Positions 1 to 11,513 of a DNA stretch of 11,513 nt are shown in pieces. Origin of the DNA: Okeania sp. SIO2B9 (GTDB lineage: Bacteria; Cyanobacteriota; Cyanobacteriia; Cyanobacteriales; Microcoleaceae); NCBI RefSeq assembly GCF_010672505.1, contig NZ_JAAHGK010000067.1, forward strand, positions 1-11,513. The letters run 5' to 3'. The position numbers and the translations under genes are program-made. Under the pieces are notes generated by a model that saw nothing but the letters and a program-made list of their open reading frames with translations, was not told the DNA's origin and did not search any database. Positions within the stretch are counted from its first letter, which is position 1. Each line of letters opens with the position of its first letter.

Positions 1-90
1 TGGATAGTTGGGATAAATGGTAATCCTTTAGCAGGTGTAATGGGGTGGTTTTTTTTAGGAGCGATCGCTTTGTTTATTCAGCGAAAGTGA
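1..90 (+). CDS. 3' end of a gene running into the window (C-terminal 29 codons, hydrophobic); partial
   Basis: Frame 1 is open from base 1 to TGA at 88-90 and reads WIVGINGNPLAGVMGWFFLGAIALFIQRK*. The hydrophobic tail looks like the end of a membrane protein. There is no start in the window. Confidence 0.2.
   Translation, partial: WIVGINGNPLAGVMGWFFLGAIALFIQRK
61..68. repeat. HIP1 octamer GCGATCGC (one of at least 8 copies)
   Basis: Exact GCGATCGC occurs here and at about 1543, 5936, 6339, 7921, 8861 and 9487. Its over-representation is a hallmark of many cyanobacterial genomes. Confidence 0.7.
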
Positions 91-150
91 ATTGGTATAA
101 CCTAAGAGGTAGTTATATCATGTCTGGATAATAGACATCTCCAGAAAAGA

Positions 151-177
151 GGGAGTAGGCAGTAGGCAGTAGGGAGG
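151..177. repeat. STRR-like heptanucleotide tandem array (GGGAGTA GGCAGTA GGCAGTA GGGAGG)
   Basis: Direct read: four consecutive 7-mers of the form GGSAGTA. It is preceded by the motif AATAGACATCTCCAGAAAAGAG, which recurs at 8612-8641. Confidence 0.8.
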
Positions 178-181
178 TTGC

Positions 182-379
182 ATGCAACGTCCCTACAGAG
201 AAATAATTGATAATTTCTGTGTGATAATTGATTTTATTTTTGATTTTTACCAGATGTCTAATAGCATTCTGATTCAATATCAAGATGAATTAGCTATTGG
301 AGACCAAGCTATTACTGCTAAGGAATGGAAGCAGTTAGTTAATGCTAAAAGTACTTTGGTGAAGTTTCGGGGGCAGTAA
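182..379 (+). CDS. Hypothetical small protein (65 aa)
   Basis: ATG is preceded by GGGAGG about 5 nt upstream, which is Shine-Dalgarno-like. I recognise no family. The ORF is convergent with the P450 gene and could be spurious. Confidence 0.25.
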   Translation: MQRPYREIIDNFCVIIDFIFDFYQMSNSILIQYQDELAIGDQAITAKEWKQLVNAKSTLVKFRGQ

Positions 380-438
380 TCTTTACAGAACAAGTTTTTT
401 GGGGAATTTTTAATTTATAAAATGACAAGTATAATATT

Positions 439-1812
439 TTAGATAGTTGCAAGGGAAGGAGATTTTTTTTGTGACTGTATACGTTTACCTTTCATCACCA
501 TTTTCACTCCACCCCTAGGACCTAAAATTATTCCTCGACGTTGGGGTTTCACAGGTTGATTTTCTGCTAATTCCATCTCTATATTAGATAATAGAGTTGC
601 CAATACTAAACGCATCTCGAAATTTGCTAGTGCCATTCCCAAACAGCGACGACTGCCACCTCCAAAGGGCAAATATTGATAGGTCGAAAACTGCCTCTCT
701 AAAAATCGCTCTGGCTTGAACTTTTTCGGTTCTGGGTACAAATCTTCTCGTTGGTGAGTCAAATAAATAGAACCCGAAATCATTGTACCTGTTTCCAAGT
801 GATAACCCTGCAACTCAACAGGTTGTTTTGTCCGACGAAGAAGTGTCGCAAATGCCACCGGATATATTCGTAGGGTTTCCTGACAAACTGCTGTCAAATA
901 GGGTAAACGGAAAATTGTCATGGGGTCCGCATCTGTTTCCATAGTTTCCAACTCTTCCATTAATTTCTGATATACTTGTGGTTGTTTGTGAATCCAATAA
1001 AGTGCCCAAGCAAGAGCATTTGCAGTAGTGTCGTGACCTGCAAATAACAATGTGATCAACTCATCCCGAATTTCTTGGTCTGTCATACCTTGACCTTCTT
1101 CATCTCGTGCTAATAACATTAAGGTAAGGATATCAGTACGATTCAGATCTAGTTGAGAGCGACGAGTGGCAATTTCTGTATATAGGAGTTCATTAAGTTG
1201 TTGTTGTTGACGTCGATACTTACCCCAAGGACTCCAAGGGCCTAAATCCTTTTGCAACCAGGGAAAAAATAATAAACTAGCTCGGAGTGGAGAGGCTGTA
1301 AATTCGATAAAATCTACTAACATTAACCTAATTTGTGATAACCGGGGGCTATCATATAGACCAAAAACAGCTTGGAGTATCACCTGGGTCGTAATTTCTT
1401 GCATAAGTTTAAGAGCAATAAATGGTTGACTCACTTTTAAATTGCTAGCTGTTTCTTTCGTGATGTTACAGATTAACTCACCATAGCTCCGCATTCTGTC
1501 GCCATGAAAAGGAGGCATTAATAATTTGCGTTCTCGGCGGTGGCGATCGCCTTCTAAGCCAAATATAGAGTACTCCCCAAGCATTGATTGTATAACTTTA
1601 CTAGCAGGAGTTTCATACTCATTATTATCCTTTGTCAATACCTCCTGCAAAGCTTGCGGACTGCTGACGAAGACAACTTCACCTACAGAAGTCATCATAG
1701 TAAAAATATCTCCATACTTCTTGGCATAAGATTCAAGAGTACTGAGTGGAGCGAGAACCAATTGCAGTCTCTGAAAAAGCGGTGGTGTTTTTGGTCCTTT
1801 GATTAATTTCAT
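439..1812 (-). CDS. Cytochrome P450 monooxygenase
   Basis: 457 aa. It has the heme-thiolate loop FGGGSRRCLG, I-helix AGHDTT, K-helix ETLR and the PERF motif (FKPERF). Start ATG is at 1812 and stop TAA at 439-441. Confidence 0.9.
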   Translation of the reverse strand: MKLIKGPKTPPLFQRLQLVLAPLSTLESYAKKYGDIFTMMTSVGEVVFVSSPQALQEVLTKDNNEYETPASKVIQSMLGEYSIFGLEGDRHRRERKLLMPPFHGDRMRSYGELICNITKETASNLKVSQPFIALKLMQEITTQVILQAVFGLYDSPRLSQIRLMLVDFIEFTASPLRASLLFFPWLQKDLGPWSPWGKYRRQQQQLNELLYTEIATRRSQLDLNRTDILTLMLLARDEEGQGMTDQEIRDELITLLFAGHDTTANALAWALYWIHKQPQVYQKLMEELETMETDADPMTIFRLPYLTAVCQETLRIYPVAFATLLRRTKQPVELQGYHLETGTMISGSIYLTHQREDLYPEPKKFKPERFLERQFSTYQYLPFGGGSRRCLGMALANFEMRLVLATLLSNIEMELAENQPVKPQRRGIILGPRGGVKMVMKGKRIQSQKKSPSLATI

Positions 1813-1930
1813 ATAGTTACTTGTGAATTTTTGGACTGTTTAATATTAGAAGTTAACAATAGCATTTTATCAGTTTTTTTGTCTCAAATTCAATGCCCTA
1901 GTGTTAGACAAATTTTTATGTTGGCGACTG

Positions 1931-1956
1931 CCGTTTGCGTAGCATTCTGTAGGAAA
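1931..1956. repeat. Left arm of a ~26-bp inverted repeat (CYGTTTGCGYAGCATTCYGTAGGAAA); partner at 3526-3551
   Basis: 1931-1956 ccgtttgcgtagcattctgtaggaaa. The reverse complement of 3526-3551 is ctgtttgcgcagcattccgtaggaaa, giving 23/26 identity. Confidence 0.6.
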
Positions 1957-2133
1957 ATAATTAATAATTAATTATTACTTATCTTTGGCCAAGTTCTTTA
2001 CATTGAAAAAGTTTGATCGACCAAGAGAAGAAAAAATTTTCATTATTAGTCAATCCTCTTCTTTTCAAGTAGAGGTAATTATTAATTATAGCAATTCCCA
2101 AGAAGCGTGAGGTACGCGCATTCGTTGGTTCTA

Positions 2134-2168
2134 GGGAATAGGGAACAGGGAATAGGGAATAGGAGACA
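2134..2168. repeat. STRR-like heptamer tandem array (GGGAATA/GGGAACA x5)
   Basis: Direct read: gggaata gggaaca gggaata gggaata ggagaca. Confidence 0.8.
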
Positions 2169-2438
2169 AATCAAGATAGGTGTACTTCATTAGGTTGAGA
2201 AAAGCTATATTAATTATTAATTGTTGAAAGATACCCTCTAGTAATTATTGCTCTGCTGATTAAATCTCAAAGCATTGATATATAAAGATATTAGCCTTTT
2301 TTAGCTGGAAATACCTGGTTTTGATCCCTTCACGCTCATGCATGGAGCGCATTTTGGGGTGACTATGGCAGAAAAATCACTCTTGCTATAATGAACAACC
2401 ACCTTCTCTATAACTCCCTCGTTCCTCCTGACTCTTAA

Positions 2439-2466
2439 CTACTCCCTACTCCCTACTCCCTACCTC
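2439..2466. repeat. STRR-like heptamer tandem array (CTACTCC x4)
   Basis: Direct read: ctactcc ctactcc ctactcc ctacctc. It is the reverse complement of the GGGAGTA-type unit seen at 151-177. Confidence 0.8.
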
Positions 2467-2535
2467 AACAAAAAGACTTTCCATAAGCAAACCCTAATTA
2501 GTATTAGAAGCTAGAGAGTTGAAGCGTCATAAAAT

Positions 2536-3480
2536 TCAGATATCTTGTCTATTTCTGGCATCTAAAAATTTTAATTGTTGATACAACATCCCAATTTTAT
2601 CTAGCTGAATACCTGCTGCACCTGCCATTCGTAAAGGGTTGCCAATAATACTTTCTATTTCTAAAGGTTGTCGTCGCTCATAATCAATTTTCATGCTAGT
2701 TAAATAAGGGTTTAACTTGTAAGTATGGTCTAACATATTTTGAATATAACTATTTGGAATTTCGCACTTACAACTTTTTGCACCCTCCAATACTTCTTGC
2801 ATTATTTCTGTGATTAAGTTTCTAGTATTAGTATCTCCCATCATTTCATCAGTTCGAGCATCTAGAATTACTGACAAGCTGTTATAAGGAATATTCCAAA
2901 CTAATTTTTTCCATCTTTCTTGGAATAAATCTTCACTCAAATTAACTTGTATTCCAGCACTTTCAAAATCTTGGGAAATTTCACGCATTTTATTAGTAAT
3001 ACCAGCAGGTTGATAATTTGTGGTATATTTTCCGATTCTAATCAAACCATAATCTACATGGCGAATATGACCATAACCTATTTTATTAGAAGCAATATTA
3101 GATACTCCTCCAATTACTCTTTCCTCACCAACAATTTTGGCTATTTCAGGTTCTGCACCCAATCCATTTTGTAAGAGTAAGACAACGTTATTTTCTTGGC
3201 ACAAAGGTGGGAGTAATTCTGGTAATAAATAGTTTTGCGTTGTTTTTAATGCTACGAGAATTACATCACATTTTGGCATTTTATTAGTATTGTTATAGGC
3301 GTTAATTTGAGGGAGGGTAAAGTCGCCATTTTTGGATTCTATGATTAAGCCATTTTTGAGAACGTGCTGATAATCACTACGCAGTAAAAAATGAACTTCT
3401 AATCCTGCTTTTTGTAGTTTTGCACCGTAAAAACCTCCTAGTGCGCCACTGCCAATAATCGCGTAAGTATTTTTTGACAT
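2536..3480 (-). CDS. panE: 2-dehydropantoate 2-reductase (ketopantoate reductase, PanE/ApbA family)
   Basis: 314 aa. N-terminal Rossmann motif is AIIGSGALGGFYGAKL. The length, the central LLQNGLG motif and a C-terminal helical domain are typical of the KPR family. Stop is TGA. Confidence 0.75.
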   Translation of the reverse strand: MSKNTYAIIGSGALGGFYGAKLQKAGLEVHFLLRSDYQHVLKNGLIIESKNGDFTLPQINAYNNTNKMPKCDVILVALKTTQNYLLPELLPPLCQENNVVLLLQNGLGAEPEIAKIVGEERVIGGVSNIASNKIGYGHIRHVDYGLIRIGKYTTNYQPAGITNKMREISQDFESAGIQVNLSEDLFQERWKKLVWNIPYNSLSVILDARTDEMMGDTNTRNLITEIMQEVLEGAKSCKCEIPNSYIQNMLDHTYKLNPYLTSMKIDYERRQPLEIESIIGNPLRMAGAAGIQLDKIGMLYQQLKFLDARNRQDI

Positions 3481-3525
3481 TTTATTGAACTTAAATTCGA
3501 CTCTGTTTCTATTTTATTGTAAGCA

Positions 3526-3551
3526 TTTCCTACGGAATGCTGCGCAAACAG
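3526..3551. repeat. Right arm of the inverted repeat paired with 1931-1956
   Basis: See 1931-1956. The two arms bracket panE plus two heptamer arrays, about 1.6 kb apart. Confidence 0.6.
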
Positions 3552-4151
3552 CTATTAGCTGTCAGCTCTCAACAACAAGACTCTCTCATATAGGACAGTG
3601 TTTAAATTAATATAGACTTTAAGGGCAAGGGAGCTAACTTTTGCAGTAAGACAATTAATAAAGCTTTTATGGTAAACTAAAAGCAATAGCTAATAGTTAT
3701 GACTGACCGTTGAATGCTTCAATAAAAGTTTTATTTAAACTCTATTATTAAGGGCGAAGTCTTAATTTTTTTTACTTCATATACTTGCATTTTGCTGTAT
3801 TAAACTCAACTCTATCATTATTTTATCTGTTCAAATTTTTCAACTTTAATTTTGCTACATGAATAGTCTTTCCATTATCCAGTTTAAAATTTTTCCTAAA
3901 GCAAATCCTCCTGCCAATGCTAAGAAAATATAATACAGTAGATTCCACTTTAATCAGATACACCCGTCGCTGGCAAGATGCCCGCACTAGAAACATTTAA
4001 TTGTTAATCTCTGTACTTCTTATGGGAGGAATCTGCTGTAATTTATATTTATAACTCCAGCTTAAGTTTCTAGAATGTTCTAAATAAAGAAAGATAGAAA
4101 AAAATAGCAGGCAAAAACAGTACTAAAACTAAAGTTATAGTGTTTATAAAA

Positions 4152-4240
4152 GTTATAGCAGTCGAAGGAAAGGTTAGGAGAAATAAAAAACTTAAAACTC
4201 AGACAAAGGAATATTTTTCCTTCTTCCCTCTTCCTTCTGC
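4152..4240. repeat. Copy A of a ~90-nt dispersed structured element (purine/pyrimidine-rich arms that can pair)
   Basis: TATAGCAGTCGAAGGAAAGGTTAGGAG...CAGACAAAGGAATATTTTTCCTTCTTCCCTCTTCCTTCTGC aligns at about 70% identity with 5390-5480. The 5' GAAGGAAAGG arm is complementary to the 3' CCTTCTTCC arm. It lies 28 nt 3' of the thioesterase gene (minus strand). Confidence 0.55.
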
Positions 4241-4267
4241 TATATACCAATTCCTAAAAATAATGCT

Positions 4268-4708
4268 CTACTTATATTCATTGTTAATTTTTGAATAACT
4301 AGGAAAACTCAATAACCATTTCCTCATTTCATCAGATAATTTTTGCCTACTTCTACTTTGAGGATGAATACAAACGTGCTTCGTAATAGCTCTTGCCCCC
4401 CACTTATCCTCTGTTTCTTTTAAAAAGACTTGATAGGAAATTTCAAACTCATCGTCTCTCCAACTTTTAGGAATTAATTCAATAGTTAACTCATCCCCAC
4501 AAAACATCGGGCGACGAAAATCAACATTAGCATGAATAATTGGAATAGCTATTTCTTGATTACTAAAAAAAACTTTCAGATTAATACCAAATTCTACTAA
4601 AGATGCTTCATAAGCTTCATGGCACATTGCTAAAACATTAGCAAAATAAACTACTCCAGCAGCATCGGTATCTTGAAAATGAACTATTCTTGTATAGTAA
4701 AAAGACAT
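4268..4708 (-). CDS. Hotdog-fold acyl-CoA thioesterase (4HBT family; resembles cyanobacterial 1,4-dihydroxy-2-naphthoyl-CoA hydrolase of phylloquinone synthesis)
   Basis: 146 aa. The N-terminus RIVHFQDTDAAGVVYFANVL carries the catalytic Asp in a DTDAAG context, which is typical of 4HBT-type thioesterases. Size fits the family. Confidence 0.65.
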   Translation of the reverse strand: MSFYYTRIVHFQDTDAAGVVYFANVLAMCHEAYEASLVEFGINLKVFFSNQEIAIPIIHANVDFRRPMFCGDELTIELIPKSWRDDEFEISYQVFLKETEDKWGARAITKHVCIHPQSRSRQKLSDEMRKWLLSFPSYSKINNEYK

Positions 4709-4938
4709 TTATAGATATAGGTTTAATAATAATACCATTTCTCTATGAATTTGCGCTGAATAAAAGATGATAATTATCAGAATAATAAGGTCAGGGCAAA
4801 AATTATTAAGTGCATCGTTACAAAGAAATGATATTAGATTGAATAAAGTTTTAGGTAATAGGTATTAGGTTCAATTGAAGATTAAACTTTAACCAGTTAT
4901 AGAAACCGTAAAGACAGTCATATTTTCTACACTTATAA

Positions 4939-5380
4939 CCTGACACCTACCAGGAAGGGTAGGGAGGATAAATCATATATTTAGGAATTAGGCATTTTTG
5001 AGTTCTAAACACTACATATCTGTAACGTTATAGTTTTTCTCATTATATATAGTCTGTTTACCTAAATTCGGAACTATAACGTTATAGTTTTTCTCGTTAT
5101 ATATAGTTTGTTGACCTAAATACTGATCGCCTGACAACTGCCACTCAAGGAAGGTAGGGACAATAAATCATATATTTAGGACTTAAGTATTTTTGAGTTC
5201 TAGAGACTACATATCTGTAACGTTATAGTTTTTGCTCGTGATATATAGTCTGTTGACCTAAATACTGATCGCCTGACAACTGCCACTCAAGGAAGGTAGG
5301 GACAATAAATCATATATTTAGGAATTAGGGATTTTTGAGTTCTAGAGACTACATATCTGCAACGTTATAGTTTTTGCTCA
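4939..5380 (+). repeat. Tandem array of ~143-bp units (3 full plus 1 partial), each with a TATATT box and a CTGTAACGTTATAG hairpin followed by T5; candidate tandem sRNA genes
   Basis: Units are 4939-5072, partial 5073-5129, 5130-5271 and 5272-5380. Units 2 and 3 are more than 90% identical. Hairpin plus T-run occur at 5020-5038, 5074-5092, 5215-5233 and 5357-5375. TATATT occurs at 4976, 5171 and 5313, about 40 nt upstream of each hairpin. Confidence 0.6.
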
Positions 5381-5389
5381 CCATATACA

Positions 5390-5480
5390 TAATAGTAGTC
5401 GAAGCAAAGGGCACGGACATATCAAAAGCTGAAAACTAAGACAATGCAAATTTTTTTGTCCTTCGCTCCTTCCTTCTTCC
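5390..5480. repeat. Copy B of the ~90-nt dispersed structured element
   Basis: AATAGTAGTCGAAGCAAAGGGCACGGAC...AAGACAATGCAAATTTTTTTGTCCTTCGCTCCTTCCTTCTTCC. It sits directly after the tandem array and about 80 nt 3' of the TerB-like gene (minus strand). Confidence 0.55.
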
Positions 5481-5561
5481 TTTTCTGAACAATGAACAAT
5501 CACTACAATAAAATTGAGTATTGTTCATTGAACATTCATCAGGACTAATTTTGTAATTAAA

Positions 5562-6008
5562 TTAACCCTTATTTTTAATCATTATTACATCAATAATCTT
5601 AGTCGCTACTGCTTCGGAAATTTCCAAAGCATTATATAACTCATTCAAAAGTTGTTCCTCCTCTTCAGCAAGGTCTCCATCTACTAAAACCAAGTCTGTA
5701 CTAACAGCAAAAACTGTTTCCCTTAACTCCTTTGGAAGTTTAGCAACTGCAGCATCAAACAAAGGCTTAATTTCTTGATTTTTAATCATATCGAGAAGAC
5801 GGTCTTGCATTTCTGTTTTACGTTCTTTTGGATAATCACTAAACAGTTGCATACGAGAGAAAATATTATTAATACCTTGAGATTCACTCTTAGTAATAAC
5901 ACCATCAGCAGCAACAGCAATTAAAGCGATCGCTGCAAAAGCTTCTGCCGGTTCTAATTGAATATCAGTAGCTTGTATTGTTGTTGTTCCTTGATCGAAA
6001 AGACCCAT
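5562..6008 (-). CDS. TerB-like (tellurite-resistance TerB family) domain protein
   Basis: 148 aa. It has a two-lobed acidic helical pattern, AFAAIALIAVAADGVITKSESQ ... VFAVSTDLVLVDGDLAEEEEQLL, matching the TerB fold. Compare E. coli TerB ...AVCARIAVASDGVSSEEKQ... / ...AVAKSDGNFDDDEK.... Confidence 0.6.
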   Translation of the reverse strand: MGLFDQGTTTIQATDIQLEPAEAFAAIALIAVAADGVITKSESQGINNIFSRMQLFSDYPKERKTEMQDRLLDMIKNQEIKPLFDAAVAKLPKELRETVFAVSTDLVLVDGDLAEEEEQLLNELYNALEISEAVATKIIDVIMIKNKG

Positions 6009-6122
6009 TTTAGTACCTCATTAATGATTTTTTTACCATCTCTATTTTGGAAAAATATTAGGTGTTATTAAATAAGTTTTAGATTGAATCTACAACCTAA
6101 AATTTACCACCTACTACCTTCT

Positions 6123-7478
6123 TCAATACTTCTCAAAAACTGTTAAATTAGCTTTGAGAAAATCAATAAATTGTCGTGCCGTTCGCCCAGAGCGACCATT
6201 ATATTTCGTAGCCCATTGTAAAGCTTGATAGTCTAAATCTTCAGGATTTAGATTAATTTTTGCCTGTTTTGCCAGATGTCTAACAATTGTTAAATAAGTA
6301 TCCTGGTTAGCAGGTTCAAAAGTTAAAGTTAAGCCAAAGCGATCGCTAAAAGAAAGCTTTTCTTGAACTGTATCCCAATTATGAACCTCATCACTATCTT
6401 TTGGGCGAGGGCGATCGTTAAAAAATTCTCTAATTAAATGCCTTCTATTTGATGTAGCATAGACTACCACATTTGTTGGTCTAGCAGTTAAATTACCCTC
6501 TAAAACAACTTTAAGAGCTTTAAAAGTATCATCATCTTCTTCAAAGGAAAGGTCATCGACAAAGATAATAAATTTTTGTGGAATATCGCGTAATTTTTCT
6601 ACAATTAATGGTAAATCTTTTAGGTTTGATTTAGCCACTTCGACTAAACGAAGATTGCGTTGACTATACTCATTTAATAAGGCTTTTATTAAAGAGGATT
6701 TGCCAGAACCGCGACTACCATAAAGTAATATATTAAGGGCTGAATATCCTGCTAGGAGAAATTCTGTATTTTTGATTAAGGCATCTTTTTGAAATTCATA
6801 TCCGACCAATTCTTTTAATTCAACTGGGTCAGGGTAAGTAATAGTAAGTAGTTGACCGTTACGCCATTCAAAGGCAATTGATTCAGCAAATAAACCAGTG
6901 CCATTATGATGATAATGAGTGGCTAAGGTCTCAATGGCATCTGCCCAATTTTCTAATTTTTTTAACTCGTCGTAGATAGCTTCTTTTTGTTGTGATTGTA
7001 TTTCCCACGCAATAGGGGGATTCTCTAATTTAGCTATTGTTTTTACCCACTGACTAATTGTTTTACCACTGCACTGATAAAGATTTTGTAAAATTTGTAA
7101 ATCATGTTTTGCAGCTGCAATTAAATTTGGAGATAGGCTGGTAATATTTATTTTTTGAACTTGTTGACTAAAGGGATTATCATCTTGAATAATCTGAGCA
7201 ATTAGATATTCTTGCCAGGAAATATTTTGACTAGCAATATTTATAAACCAGTTACCATAAGCTTGAAGGCATTCTATAGCAACTCCATCATTTTTAGACA
7301 AAGATTCTAATAATTGGATAAAAGCTTCACCCACTGTTTTTTTTAGAACAGACTGATATAACAATAGAGATGCTATTTGCTGTTGTAAGTTTTGAATTTT
7401 GGCTAACACTTGGGAACCTAAACAAGACATAATTAATGATATGATTGCCTTATTAAATAAAGGATCAGCACTTAGCAC
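6123..7478 (-). CDS. AAA+ ATPase of the DUF815 family
   Basis: 451 aa. Walker A is LLYGSRGSGKSS and Walker B is FIIFVDDLSFEEDD, followed by VVYATSNRRHL, the characteristic DUF815 signature. Stop is TGA. Confidence 0.75.
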   Translation of the reverse strand: MLSADPLFNKAIISLIMSCLGSQVLAKIQNLQQQIASLLLYQSVLKKTVGEAFIQLLESLSKNDGVAIECLQAYGNWFINIASQNISWQEYLIAQIIQDDNPFSQQVQKINITSLSPNLIAAAKHDLQILQNLYQCSGKTISQWVKTIAKLENPPIAWEIQSQQKEAIYDELKKLENWADAIETLATHYHHNGTGLFAESIAFEWRNGQLLTITYPDPVELKELVGYEFQKDALIKNTEFLLAGYSALNILLYGSRGSGKSSLIKALLNEYSQRNLRLVEVAKSNLKDLPLIVEKLRDIPQKFIIFVDDLSFEEDDDTFKALKVVLEGNLTARPTNVVVYATSNRRHLIREFFNDRPRPKDSDEVHNWDTVQEKLSFSDRFGLTLTFEPANQDTYLTIVRHLAKQAKINLNPEDLDYQALQWATKYNGRSGRTARQFIDFLKANLTVFEKY

Positions 7479-7893
7479 TCAGCAATTAGTAGGAGCATTT
7501 TTTTTAGGTTTATAAGGGGATTTCAACTCCTACTAAACTATCTGAAACAATATTTGTTAGAGATTTTAACCCAAACTCAAAAAACTTTATAATAGCTGAT
7601 AGCTTACCACTGGATACTTACCTATTTCTTTGGCGTAATGTAAATCTATGTAATTCTATAATAAATTTTACTCTTTGTAGTTATAAACCACTATTTTTTT
7701 ACATTTACTTAAGATGCAATTTAAGATCGAGAAATATTTCAAAAAATGTTATTGAATAGTTGAAAATTTCATTTTTAATCATAGTTTAATAATTATTGAA
7801 TCTTGATTAAGCAATATTAAGTTTTGATAAATTGGCTAGCTATTGCCACAAATAAGCTGTATAAGTTAGTTTTAGTTTTAGGAGTTAATAATA

Positions 7894-8232
7894 ATGACTA
7901 TAAATATCGCCATAATAGCAGCGATCGCCTATGGTATATTAGCCATTGTTGGGGGCATTATTGGATATACGAAAGTAGGCAGCAAAATATCTTTAATATC
8001 TGGTAGTATCAGTGGTTTACTACTAATTGTTAGTGGAATTATTCAACTAATGGGCATGAATTGGGGTCTAATATTTTCTACCCTCATTACAACTATTCTA
8101 GTAATTACATTCATTATTCGTTTAGCAAAAACTCGTAAAATGATGCCTGCGGGATTAATGATTTTAACTGGAGTTGCTGCTGTAGCAGTTATGGTTTATG
8201 AAATTACCATAAACAATTCAGCCACAATTTAA
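7894..8232 (+). CDS. TMEM14-family small membrane protein (4 TM helices)
   Basis: 112 aa. It has the YGILAIVGGIIGYTKVGSKISLISG motif typical of the TMEM14/UPF0136 family. TAGGAG Shine-Dalgarno lies 9 nt upstream of ATG. Confidence 0.6.
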   Translation: MTINIAIIAAIAYGILAIVGGIIGYTKVGSKISLISGSISGLLLIVSGIIQLMGMNWGLIFSTLITTILVITFIIRLAKTRKMMPAGLMILTGVAAVAVMVYEITINNSATI

Positions 8233-8492
8233 AAAGAAACGTAAGTATTTAGCCGTCAGCTTTCAGCTCCATTAGAACTAATGACTATAGCCTTTAAAGC
8301 AGAAGTTACCATTGACAGATTTTATCTAATTAAAAATATGAATTAAAAGTTTCCCTAGTAACTTCTAAAGTCTTAAAAAATGCTTACTTCATTTATTAAT
8401 CAAGATGAGAGCTGACCACTAATCACTGTTTGTGGAGCATTCAGGCACGGAAATCCTTATACCAATTTCATAAACTTGAGCTACTTAGGTTT

Positions 8493-8527
8493 GGAGTAGT
8501 CAGTAGTCAGTAGTCAGTAGTCAGGAG
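8493..8527. repeat. STRR-like heptamer tandem array (AGTAGTC x4-5)
   Basis: Direct read: ggagtag tcagtag tcagtag tcagtag tcaggag. Confidence 0.8.
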
Positions 8528-8552
8528 GTAAGGTGAGTAGCCTTACTTTTTG
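8527..8552 (+). terminator. Rho-independent terminator-like hairpin
   Basis: Stem GTAAGG (8528-8533), loop TGAGTAG, stem CCTTAC (8541-8546), then TTTTT (8547-8551). It lies in the convergent gap between the TMEM14 gene and the MVP pseudogene. Confidence 0.5.
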
Positions 8553-8684
8553 AATTTGGTATTACAAAGAAACAAAGAATATGGAAGAGATAAAAAAGTA
8601 GAAACTTGCTCAATAGACATATAGATATCTCCAGAAAAGAGATAACAGGTAACAGGAAGAAATAATAGAAATCATCAATTATTT

Positions 8685-8736
8685 CTCCCTACTCCCCTAC
8701 TCCCCTACTCCCTGCTCCCTACTCCCTACTCCCTAA
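8685..8736. repeat. STRR-like 7/8-mer tandem array (CTCCCT ACTCCCCT ACTCCCCT ACTCCCT GCTCCCT ACTCCCT ACTCCCT)
   Basis: Direct read. It overlaps the last codons and the stop of the MVP-like reading frame. Confidence 0.8.
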
Positions 8737-10481
8737 ATTGGGATTAATCAACCCATTAGCCGTACCAAAAAGATTAATTGGACTCTTACCATCAGTAATT
8801 AAAACACTCTGAAGACCAAGCCCCTACAACAACCTCGCCTGCATTTATGGGCCAGCTTGAGCGATCGCCCGAATTGTCTCAGCCCCCAAAGCCTCCACTT
8901 TTTGCTGAAACTCAGTAGCAGTAATTTCAGCCATTTGCCTTGCCTTCTCAATCTCTAAATTATTCAGTGTCTGCTGATGGGCTAACTCAGTCTCCTGACG
9001 CGCCCTCAACTGAGCCATCTCAGCCTCATGGCGAATCCGTGCTGCTTCTACTTCCTGCTGCGCCAAATTCACCGCCAACTGGCCTTGAAAAGGAGATAAC
9101 ATATAAGCTTGAGGTCCATTGACTAATTTTAGTTCCCCACTTTGAACATCCCGTACATATATACCTTCATTTTTGTCTAGGGGAATAGCCTGAAGTTTTT
9201 CTAATACTTCTAATTCCACTGGGGGAATATAATCTCTTGGCCCAGTAATCATCCATAAATCTCCTGGTTGCCGAGTAATAACGTTTGCTCCTGTTCCCTC
9301 GGTGAAAGTTTCCTCAACTCTGATTAGGAGTGCTTCTTGTTCACCAAGAATATAGACCTTTTTAATTCCTGTTTCTAAATCTTCTCCTGGGTGCAAAAAG
9401 AAAGATGTTCTGCCCTGACGCACTTCTTTCATACCCCACTGCGGTTTACCATCTGCATCTATGGGATTAGTTACTATGCACCATTCGCGATCGCTTAAAG
9501 TAGTGATTTTGACTTCTCCCACTACTTCTTCATAAACGTCGGGAATATGAATTTCAGCATCTGCAAAAGTAACTAACTATTCATATCCCGCTTTGCGTTG
9601 CTGACCAAAAATATCAGTAAAAGTCCGTTTTGCTTTTAGATGTAGTGCTTGACGTTCGGTTAATACATAGGCATCAATAGTATCGACAATTTCTTCATCT
9701 ACTCCAGGCAAATAAGCACCTTCTTCCCTGACCAACCATTATTCCCCAGTTCTACGTCTGTTACCTTGACGATCTATACAATTTTGTCGTGCCAGCAGTC
9801 GTAAGGCTTGGTTAGGTTTAATTATTTTAGCTATAACTGTGACTACCACTTCAACTTCTACCCTGGGAGTGTAAGTTCCTGGCCCCTCAAATAACCATTC
9901 ATCCCCTGTCGTACGAGTGACAGTTTGAGACTCTCCTGCAACGATAACTGTATCAGTAAAATCTCGTATTGCTTTGAGACGTAGAGTTTGGTTTGTGTCA
10001 ATTACTTGTAGTTGAGTTACATCTTCTTCGAGTATTTCTCCTGGATATAGTGGGAAAGGGTCTTGAGCAAAGCGAATTTCCAGATCGCCATATTTGAGTC
10101 TAATTTAACCATACTCATCGGCCACAAGTTGATCTGAACTATAGCAATGTGCGCTGGCATATTTACACATTATTTTTTGTACACCTTTTCTAAAATGCAC
10201 TTTGAACTGGGCCTTGTAAATACCTGAGCGCTCATTGCTATATTTCTTAGTACAGGGTTAGCTGCTACACAATAATGGCGAGGTGGAACTACAATTGTCA
10301 GTTGTGGTTGTCAGACTAACCTTTCTGCATCTCCAAGGGTAATGGTTTGAGGGCCTATTTCTAGTCTGATAACACCAGTGTTATTGTCAAGAACATGAAT
10401 ATACTGTTGTGGCTTCAGGAGAATTATACCATTGTTCTCTATTGTAATTGGATATTCTGTGGTACTTTTTATTTTACTCAT
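8719..10481 (-). pseudogene. Major vault protein (MVP) homolog, disrupted by a MITE insertion and multiple in-frame stop codons
   Basis: Translation of the minus strand from ATG 10481 gives MSKIKSTTEYPITIENNGIILLKPQQYIHVLDNN... (human MVP ...PPYHYIHVLDQN...). Further on it reads ...[21 protein letters not shown]..., ...[22 protein letters not shown]..., ...SFFLHPGEDLETGIKKVYILGEQEALLIR..., ...QAIPLDKNEGIYVRDVQSGELKLV... and a cap-helix C-terminus ...[49 protein letters not shown]. All of these align residue-for-residue with vertebrate MVP. In-frame stops are TGA 10311-10313, TAA 10105-10107 (at the Q of GQVRL), TAA 9739-9741 (E of TGEEWLV), TAG 9577-9579 (W of GEEWLVT), TAA 8845-8847 (E of AGPEMQ) and TAG 8824-8826 (Q of LLQSL). 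A frame shift is caused by the 101-bp insertion at 10141-10241. The ORF-track entry 8845..9522 is only the largest intact fragment. Confidence 0.85.
10142..10240. mobile_element. 99-bp MITE-like insertion with ~15-bp terminal inverted repeats (TAGCAATGWGCGCT) and an apparent TA target-site duplication
   Basis: The left end is tagcaatgtgcgct. The reverse complement of the right end is tagcaatgagcgct, so 13/14 positions match. It is flanked by ta (10140-10141) and ta (10241-10242). The core is AT-rich and non-coding. Removing 101 bp (element plus one TA) rejoins ...HYCVAANPVLRN|SSDQLVADEYGQIRL... This is colinear with human ...[27 protein letters not shown]... with no gap and no frameshift. Confidence 0.6.
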
Positions 10482-10544
10482 AGTTTAATAGTTTTGTAAC
10501 TAGAAATCTTAAGTTATTCATTATCCATTATTAATTATCTCTTA

Positions 10545-11513
10545 CTATCGTCGCCAAATTTTAATAGTTCTGTCTTTACTACCACTAGCAATACTATTAC
10601 CATCAGGACTAAAAGTAACTGTATAAATCTCATCTTTATGCCCGGTCAAAGTACTAACTAATTCTCCTGTTTCTAAATCCCATATCTTAATATTATTATC
10701 CTTACTGCCACTAGCAATATATCGACCATCTTCGCTAATATCAACAGATACAACTTCAGCAGTATGACCAAGAATAGTTTTGATTAATTCTCCTGTTTTT
10801 AAGCTCCAAATTTTAATAGTATTATCGTAACTCCCACTCACTATTTTTTCCCCATCTGGACTAATATCAACAGACCTAATTACTCCTTCATGTCCAGTCA
10901 ATGTATTAATTAATTCTCCAGTATATAAATCTTCAATTTTTATAGTTTGATCTGCACTACCACTAACCAATATTCTGACGTCAGGACTAATAGCAATAGA
11001 ATAAACTACATCTGAGTGATCGGGGAAATTAAAAATTAAGAAACCTGTTTCTAAATCCCAAACTTTAACTGTTTTATCTCCACTAGCACTAGCAATTGTT
11101 TGATTATCAGAACTCATAGCAACTGACCAAACAGGTGCCCAATGTTCAAATACTCGAAATAATTCTCCTGTTTCCAAATTCCAGATCATTACTCTCCAAT
11201 CATAAGTACCTACCACTAATTTAGTACCATTATTATTCAAAGCAACTGACCAAATTGGAGAATCATCTGCAGCTAATGTGTTGATAATTTTTCCTGTAGG
11301 AACTTCTAAAATTTTTACCGTTGTGTCTCTACTTCCAGTAACTAAAGTTTTGCCATTAGAACTAAATGCAAGAGTACCTATAGAAGAATTAAACCTAGAC
11401 AAATCTTCAACTTGATAATTCTGCCAATTTAGACCTTGTTGACAATTTTGTAAAAGAGATTGAGCTTCAGCAAAAATGCTAGATTTTTCACTAATTAAAG
11501 TTCCTTGATTGAT
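10545..11513 (-). CDS. WD40-repeat protein (5' end beyond the window; at least 7 WD repeats present)
   Basis: Repeated GH...SV.FSPDG..IASGS.D.TIKIWDL units with WD/W-dipeptide ends. The frame stays open from 11402 to the window edge at 11513, so the 'M' at 11402 in the ORF track is an internal TTG. Stop is TAG at 10545-10547. Confidence 0.85.
   Translation of the reverse strand: MNQGTLISEKSSIFAEAQSLLQNCQQGLNWQNYQVEDLSRFNSSIGTLAFSSNGKTLVTGSRDTTVKILEVPTGKIINTLAADDSPIWSVALNNNGTKLVVGTYDWRVMIWNLETGELFRVFEHWAPVWSVAMSSDNQTIASASGDKTVKVWDLETGFLIFNFPDHSDVVYSIAISPDVRILVSGSADQTIKIEDLYTGELINTLTGHEGVIRSVDISPDGEKIVSGSYDNTIKIWSLKTGELIKTILGHTAEVVSVDISEDGRYIASGSKDNNIKIWDLETGELVSTLTGHKDEIYTVTFSPDGNSIASGSKDRTIKIWRR

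Follow-up and report, generated by a model that had tools for sequence, protein, structure and literature searches.

Major vault protein (MVP) homologs have been known in Cyanobacteria since 2013 (Daly et al. 2013, PMC3762200; Sokolskyi 2019, bioRxiv 10.1101/872010). A protein search returned intact cyanobacterial homologs of 860-930 amino acids (aa), named either 'colicin uptake protein' or 'major vault protein', and the shoulder domain is present in all 120 of the 120 intact homologs listed. The closest intact relative of the sequence studied here among the matches listed is a protein of 924 aa (P0001, encoded in locus L047), which matches the solved rat and human MVP structures with an E-value of about 1e-285.

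The window analyzed here is a stretch of 11,513 nucleotides from Okeania sp. SIO2B9 (contig NZ_JAAHGK010000067.1, positions 1 to 11,513 of the forward strand). It is AT-rich, with heptamer repeats, and an Rfam scan over its whole length gave zero matches. An initial annotation made from the sequence alone had recognized an MVP homolog on the minus strand, an assignment borne out by Pfam vault domains and by the match of P0001 to the solved structures (Table 1). When an inserted mobile element (MITE, see below) is taken out, translation follows the MVP frame unbroken from the start codon to the ancestral stop, and the conceptual translation contains four Vault repeats (E 1e-60), Vault_2 (E 2e-34) and a partial Vault_4 repeat ending at profile position 30 of 63, with no Pfam match to the MVP shoulder (SPFH-like, PF11978). 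In the part that can be aligned, this conceptual protein and P0001 share 88% identity, so that the description of the sequence around the stops as 'strikingly well conserved' was a fair one; the best full-length protein matches stand at 76-78% identity by BLAST and at 88% by alignment. The locus thus resembles MVP and its cyanobacterial homologs in the Vault/Vault_2/Vault_4 architecture, the GDEWLF and GEEWLV motifs and the C-terminal end of the cap helix, and differs from them in carrying six stops and a frame-shifting MITE and in lacking residues 486-802, including the shoulder. Where members of the family have an uninterrupted frame of about 860-930 codons, the frame in the window is interrupted by six stops, shifted by an insertion of 101 nt and shortened by the loss of 316-317 codons. 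The region is very probably a non-functional pseudogene remnant of a cyanobacterial MVP gene that went through ordinary stepwise decay.

Table 1. Features of the MVP locus, in coordinates of the whole window; L051 is the homologous locus of sister assembly GCA_010692685.1.
Feature	Position	Strand	Details
MVP pseudogene	8719..10481	-	ATG at 10481-10479 to ancestral stop TAG at 8721-8719; delimited by translation, Pfam, homolog alignment and neighbor genes
Stop TGA	10311..10313	-	from TTA (Leu); most upstream stop; late, L051 keeps TTA
MITE of the IS630 family, 99 nt	10142..10240	-	ends TAGCAATG...CATTGCTA; TA duplication at 10241-10242 and 10140-10141
Stop TAA	10105..10107	-	from CAA (Gln); common to L051
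Stop TAA	9739..9741	-	from GAA (Glu in the GEEWLV motif); common to L051
Stop TAG	9577..9579	-	from TGG (Trp in the GDEWLV motif); common to L051
Length difference, 165 nt (55 codons)	9381..9382	-	extra in P0001, Okeania SIO3I5 and SIO2F4; bounded by GAAACAG direct repeats
Deletion junction, 948-951 nt, in frame	9087..9088	-	TT microhomology; from alignment to intact orthologs; common to L051
Stop TAA	8845..8847	-	from GAA (Glu in AGPEMQ); late, L051 keeps GAA
Stop TAG	8824..8826	-	from GAG (Glu); common to L051

An intact counterpart of the gene occupies the same neighborhood in Okeania sp. SIO3I5 (L001), where a 926-aa MVP stands in the order kinase-WD40, MVP, TMEM14, DUF815 ATPase, TerB and thioesterase, collinear with the window. 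Both this gene and the one encoding P0001 have sense codons at all six stop positions and carry neither the MITE nor the deletion, and the other, differently disrupted loci of the clade (L041, L042/L044 and L052) are likewise free of all six stops, of the MITE and of the deletion. An intact paralog in the same genome was considered as a possible donor for gene conversion, and the protein search gave no close intact copy of the Okeania hirsuta-like type.

All six in-frame stops reported on the minus strand in the initial annotation were found, and each of them is a single-base change from the sense codon of intact orthologs. The accompanying statement, that every stop lies one nucleotide away from a conserved Gln, Glu or Trp codon, holds for the distance at six of six positions and for the residue at five of six, the exception being 10311-10313, where the conserved residue is Leu. 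At 8824-8826 a more distant cyanobacterial homolog (P0050) has Gln. A missense change from Asp to Tyr (GAT to TAT at 9585) adjoins the stop at 9577-9579 and is confined to the window lineage. A motif-targeted process behind two changes from GTCACC to GTTATC was rejected as a general explanation, as other GGTGAC sites in the neighbor genes are unaltered.

The initial annotation had also described the region as free of other indels, which is contradicted by the 101-nt insertion and by the deletion of 948-951 nt; conservation between stops is not the same as absence of indels. The deletion corresponds to 316-317 codons (317 being P0001 residues 486-802) and takes away the MVP shoulder together with Vault_3, half of Vault_4 and the beginning of the cap-helix coiled coil. 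The further length difference of 165 nt was not counted as a lesion, the window having the shorter form found in most cyanobacteria; the extra sequence was probably inserted in certain other lineages of Okeania. Both large indels keep the reading frame, a point that speaks against ordinary decay.

The 101-nt insertion is made up of a 99-nt element and a 2-nt duplication, and changes the frame between 10250 and 10130. The element has imperfect terminal inverted repeats of about 28-32 nt and is a real multi-copy mobile element, identified as a MITE of the IS630 family because longer relatives of 1.4-1.5 kb whose ends match its own (L082, 1506 nt; L071, 1416 nt) encode an HTH_Tnp_IS630 domain (E 2e-10) and a DDE_3 transposase (E 5e-40). 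In marine metagenome contigs, 75 stretches with the repeat were found, including at least 34 copies of nearly full length, inserted at different sites and almost always between TA dinucleotides (about 30 other copies have TA flanks like those in the window); within the window and the Okeania loci examined for it there were no further copies, the others being in metagenome contigs only. The insertion site is empty in L051, L001, L041 and L042, and L051 reads AAGAAA-TA-GTT there, with a single TA. Inverted repeats, TA duplication, dispersed copies and longer transposase-encoding relatives are all features of MITEs derived from IS630/Tc1-mariner elements, although the Okeania element was matched to no named MITE family.

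The reality and the order of the lesions can be read from sister assemblies. Three independently deposited assemblies from different projects (GCA_003838225.1, GCA_010672745.1 and GCA_010672625.1; loci L046/L050, L048 and L049) match the window at 100% identity from 8690 to 10500 (1811 nt), every lesion included. Their differences from it lie in other parts of the locus, in variable stretches between genes and, for GCA_003838225.1, also in a 7-nt indel in the P450 gene. L051 (GCA_010692685.1) is 99.3% identical to the window, with 12 differences over 1665 aligned sites; it has the deletion and the stops at 10105, 9739, 9577 and 8824, reads TTA at 10311-10313 and GAA at 8845-8847, and is without the MITE. 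Because GAA is kept at the latter position, the annotated fragment of L051 has 232 aa, as against 225 aa in the window. As L051 represents an intermediate state, with the deletion and four stops in place and the remaining lesions absent, decay was stepwise: the last lesions to arise were the MITE and the stops at 10311 (TGA) and 8845 (TAA), and the inactivation of MVP is older than the split between the window and L051. The initial annotation had spoken of a very recently inactivated gene. Inactivated it is, and recent only in relative terms, in that the event precedes the L051 split and occupies a small part of the branch. A search for further intermediate alleles with the 225-aa fragment as query returned only the two known allele types and the differently broken L052.

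The lesions, their polarity and their two-stage order are thus directly visible in the alignments, as is the neutral pattern of change since the split, and the following course of events would account for them. The ancestor would have been an intact MVP gene of about 870-925 codons lying between the kinase-WD40 and TMEM14 genes, as it still does in Okeania sp. SIO3I5. In a first stage, before the L051 split, the in-frame deletion of about 950 nt would have removed the shoulder, and the stops at 10105, 9739, 9577 and 8824 would have been acquired. A second stage, after the split, would have brought the stops at 10311 and 8845, the Asp to Tyr change and the insertion of the 99-nt IS630-type MITE into a TA site. 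The stops themselves would reflect mutation biased from GC to AT and from GC to TA in a frame where GAA, GAG, CAA and TGG codons abound and from which selection no longer purged them. What is inferred is the lack of expression of the gene and the cause of its loss, whether relaxed selection or selected loss.

Rates of change add to the picture. The window and L051 are set apart by 2 synonymous, 8 missense and 2 nonsense changes, for an NG86 dN/dS of about 1.2 (on small numbers), and the locus looks to have evolved neutrally since the two split; between more distant lineages, intact genes included, dN/dS is 0.14-0.3. Derived changes on the window lineage amount to about 38 synonymous, 32 missense and 6 nonsense, and a three-point estimate gives the window branch a dS of 0.29 and a dN of 0.040, with a ratio of 0.14, next to 0.18 and 0.32 for intact lineages. 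Since the ratio on the window branch does not exceed those of intact lineages, the gene was under constraint for the greater part of that branch, and its dead phase was short.

Whether six stops are more than such a history predicts depends on how the missense changes are apportioned. Random mutation of this ORF gives a nonsense share of 4.4-6.3% (8.9% with GC>TA changes only). If all missense changes on the branch are counted as post-death, the probability of at least six stops is 0.06-0.3. Pre-death missense/synonymous ratios of 0.3-0.6, a more realistic assumption on the earlier constraint with values at or below the lower of the intact-gene ratios (0.6 and 1.8), lead to about 0.7-2.4 expected stops and P about 0.0001-0.04, and the same ratios combined with two mutation spectra estimated from the window lineage give P = 0.0004-0.02 for at least six. 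A clean significance test was dropped, its outcome being too sensitive to the assumed pre-death constraint. The 2-6-fold excess over the missense-based expectation is therefore suggestive, not statistically robust, as it varies with the constraint that is assumed and as the stops were the reason for choosing the locus. The remark in the initial annotation that so many stops with so little other decay are unusual gains some quantitative support from this excess, which lacks robustness, and had been made with the MITE and the large deletion overlooked. The excess is best taken as a mild, unexplained surplus from which no special mechanism should be deduced.

The gene has been disrupted in other ways elsewhere in the Okeania/Dapis clade. 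In Dapis sp. BLCC M229 (L041), MVP has lost its start codon (ATG to ATC) and carries a 1.44-kb out-of-frame deletion and a 1-nt frameshift. In Okeania sp. SIO2F4 (L042/L044) and in a JGI contig (L052), codon 9 is TAA and an IS605-type TnpB element replaces residues 335-640; the SIO2F4 copy (L042) carries a group II intron reverse-transcriptase fragment as well. Like the window, these loci contain a non-functional MVP gene at the corresponding position; unlike it, they have different, independent lesions and none of its six stops. With three independent inactivations of MVP in the clade, the gene is evidently dispensable there. SIO2F4 and L052 have their lesions in common but belong to separate halves of the gene tree, with a dN/dS of 0.14 between them, a pattern that suggests recombination among Okeania lineages. 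Close relatives in this clade carry MVP copies that are intact, freshly broken or broken in other ways, which offers a natural experiment on the role of vaults in filamentous cyanobacteria; strains that have the gene could, for instance, be compared with strains that lack it.

Several other readings of the stops have to be set against stepwise decay. That they are base-calling or consensus errors in an intact gene was one of the two possibilities raised in the initial annotation; G>T changes can arise from oxidative damage in library preparation, and three of the six stops belong to this class. The lesions are nonetheless not a sequencing or assembly artefact, to a degree that leaves hardly any room for doubt, because the three other assemblies are identical throughout; moreover, L051 differs at exactly two stops and the MITE, as real polymorphism would, and the deletion and the MITE are structural changes, the latter with a clean target-site duplication. 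Programmed recoding, whether by read-through, suppression or reassignment, would still yield a functional MVP, and a frame that is continuous apart from the MITE, with well-conserved sequence between the stops, would suit it. It can be dismissed with near certainty, because none of the six stops is common to orthologs outside the immediate lineage, two being polymorphic even within it, and because all three stop types are present and all terminate neighbor genes: seven of these end in TAA (3), TGA (2) and TAG (2), which bears out the same argument in the initial annotation. The frame shift from the 101-nt MITE and the loss of the shoulder domain would defeat read-through in any case, and evolution since the L051 split has been neutral. 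It had further been proposed that the same stops in sister strains would speak for something programmed; they do occur in sister strains, but by descent, and none is found in distant orthologs, so that stop sharing among sister strains reflects common ancestry and not programming. It is very improbable, too, that surviving ORFs are expressed and useful, for example the one of 225 aa, in which three vault repeats are fused to the cap-helix end. Gene calls for the 225-aa and 56-aa ORFs, identical in several assemblies, and the dN/dS of 0.14 between the disrupted SIO2F4 and L052 copies could be cited for such residual function. The limits of the ORFs, however, are set by accidental stops (225 aa in the window, 232 aa in L051), the changes after the split are mostly missense or nonsense, and recombination with intact alleles accounts equally well for the low SIO2F4/L052 ratio.

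A different question is whether the loss itself was favored. Loss of MVP, or the shutting off of a harmful shoulder-less form of it, may have been advantageous, with several loss-of-function alleles rising in frequency and being brought together by recombination, or with successive upstream stops each favored; the outcome would be more stops than under neutral decay. Several observations lean this way: nonsense changes stand 2-6-fold above the missense-based expectation, the deletion is in frame and a truncated protein was hence possible, the most upstream stop is among the latest, inactivation took place three times independently in the Okeania/Dapis clade, and the presence of the TnpB-disrupted allele in two tree-distant lineages hints at dead alleles moving by recombination. 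Against it, the excess disappears statistically if all branch missense is post-death (P up to 0.3), the locus was chosen for its stops, which introduces ascertainment bias, and the late stop at 8845 lies downstream of four older ones, where it is without effect. Selected silencing of the locus is on balance unlikely. The same doubt attaches to the wider proposal that loss of the vault protein was selected for across the Okeania/Dapis clade, the shoulder-less MVP being harmful, stops favored and dead alleles spread between species by homologous recombination; if true, it would account for the stop excess, the three independent inactivations and the TnpB allele in two distant lineages together.

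Taken as ordinary stepwise decay, the Okeania MVP remnant is like other bacterial pseudogenes in having an intact ortholog at the same position in a relative, stepwise lineage-specific lesions, neutral evolution afterwards and fragments annotated as 'hypothetical'; it is unlike them in having more nonsense changes than missense decay predicts and in that its two large length differences are each divisible by three. The order of the lesions, the repeated loss in the clade and the modest surplus of stops lend some added interest to what is otherwise an object of an ordinary kind. Its traces in the databases are short RefSeq entries under the name 'MULTISPECIES: hypothetical protein [Okeania]', the 225-aa (8845-9522) and 56-aa ORFs being annotated as genes, with the same sequence in several assemblies. 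The Okeania 'hypothetical proteins' WP_240038893.1 and WP_192901094.1 are fragments of this dead MVP gene and are due a pseudogene flag.

The gene neighbourhood around major vault protein (MVP) is preserved at intact and dead MVP loci alike, as seen in the window, in Okeania sp. SIO3I5 (L001, intact MVP), in Dapis sp. BLCC M229 (L041) and in a JGI contig (L052, JGI 3300019849). Upstream of MVP, all Okeania and Dapis loci examined encode a Ser/Thr kinase-WD40 protein (window 10545-11513), and on the other side lies TMEM14, followed by a DUF815 AAA ATPase and a TerB-domain protein (window 5562-8232). The WD40 part of the kinase-WD40 protein gave generic matches only, among them weak ones to TEP1 propellers. 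The window and the Okeania assembly GCA_003838225.1 show 10 differences over 5469-11513; 8 of these fall inside approximately 70 nt (11319-11387) within one WD40 repeat of this gene, a cluster that looks like gene conversion among WD40 repeats.

At the same locus, an MVP pseudogene has arisen independently in Dapis, with no internal stops in its aligned parts. In Okeania sp. SIO2F4 (L042/L044) and L052, the disrupted MVP copies have in common a TAA at codon 9 as well as one junction, the right one, of an IS605 TnpB insertion. In the gene tree, however, the two copies are placed with different relatives, and their pairwise dN/dS is 0.14; this is surprising if both are long dead, and the pattern hints at either the spread of a dead MVP allele by recombination or repair from intact alleles.

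Within the window MVP pseudogene, the change GTCACC to GTTATC occurred twice, at 10369-10371 and 9944-9946 (minus strand, 425 nt between them), each time as two C>T substitutions one base apart, and both postdate the split from the closely related Okeania lineage L051 (GCA_010692685.1). A general motif-targeted process can be ruled out, since further GGTGAC/GTCACC sites in the genes next to MVP are unaltered. Across the whole locus (window 3352-11513), much of the single-base divergence of L051 from the window consists of C/A or G/T differences. Polarisation of this comparison with outgroups covered the MVP region, where all three L051-derived changes are C/A or G/T. This pattern reflects either a real GC>TA-biased spectrum of the clade or oxidative-damage errors in the L051 metagenome-assembled genome, and it bears on the assumed neutral spectrum.

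Repeats and length variation are found elsewhere in the window (see table). GCA_003838225.1, 99.8% identical otherwise, lacks the window's 726-nt segment between the thioesterase and TerB genes, and this spacer measures approximately 125, 853 or 1107 nt depending on the Okeania assembly; it is therefore a variable repeat region. Short tandem heptamer arrays such as CTCCCTA x7 and AGTAGTC x4, which are typical of filamentous cyanobacteria, also occur in the window, and one of them (8685-8735) contains the ancestral stop and final codons of MVP (..GSRE*), an ending shared by P0001, the closest intact MVP protein.

Coordinates of variable segments, repeats and Dapis MVP lesions
Feature	Location	Details
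Intergenic segment	window 4743-5468	726 nt; thioesterase-TerB spacer
Tandem repeat	window 5077-5379	~2 copies of a 142-nt unit, 95% matches; inside 4743-5468
Segment with heptamer repeats	window 145-444	300 nt; missing from GCA_003838225.1
Segment with heptamer repeats	window 1998-2486	489 nt; missing from GCA_003838225.1
Heptamer arrays	window 8685-8735, 8495-8524, 150-173, 2132-2163, 2439-2463	
Dapis MVP start codon changed to ATC	within L041 10001-11319	
Dapis MVP out-of-frame deletion	within L041 10001-11319	residues 222-701 missing
Dapis MVP additional frameshift	within L041 10001-11319	1 nt

Finally, the P450 gene of the window (439-1812) is intact and encodes 457 aa, while in GCA_003838225.1 it is called in two pieces (389 and 83 aa), and the P450 stretch of that assembly carries a 7-nt indel relative to the window.
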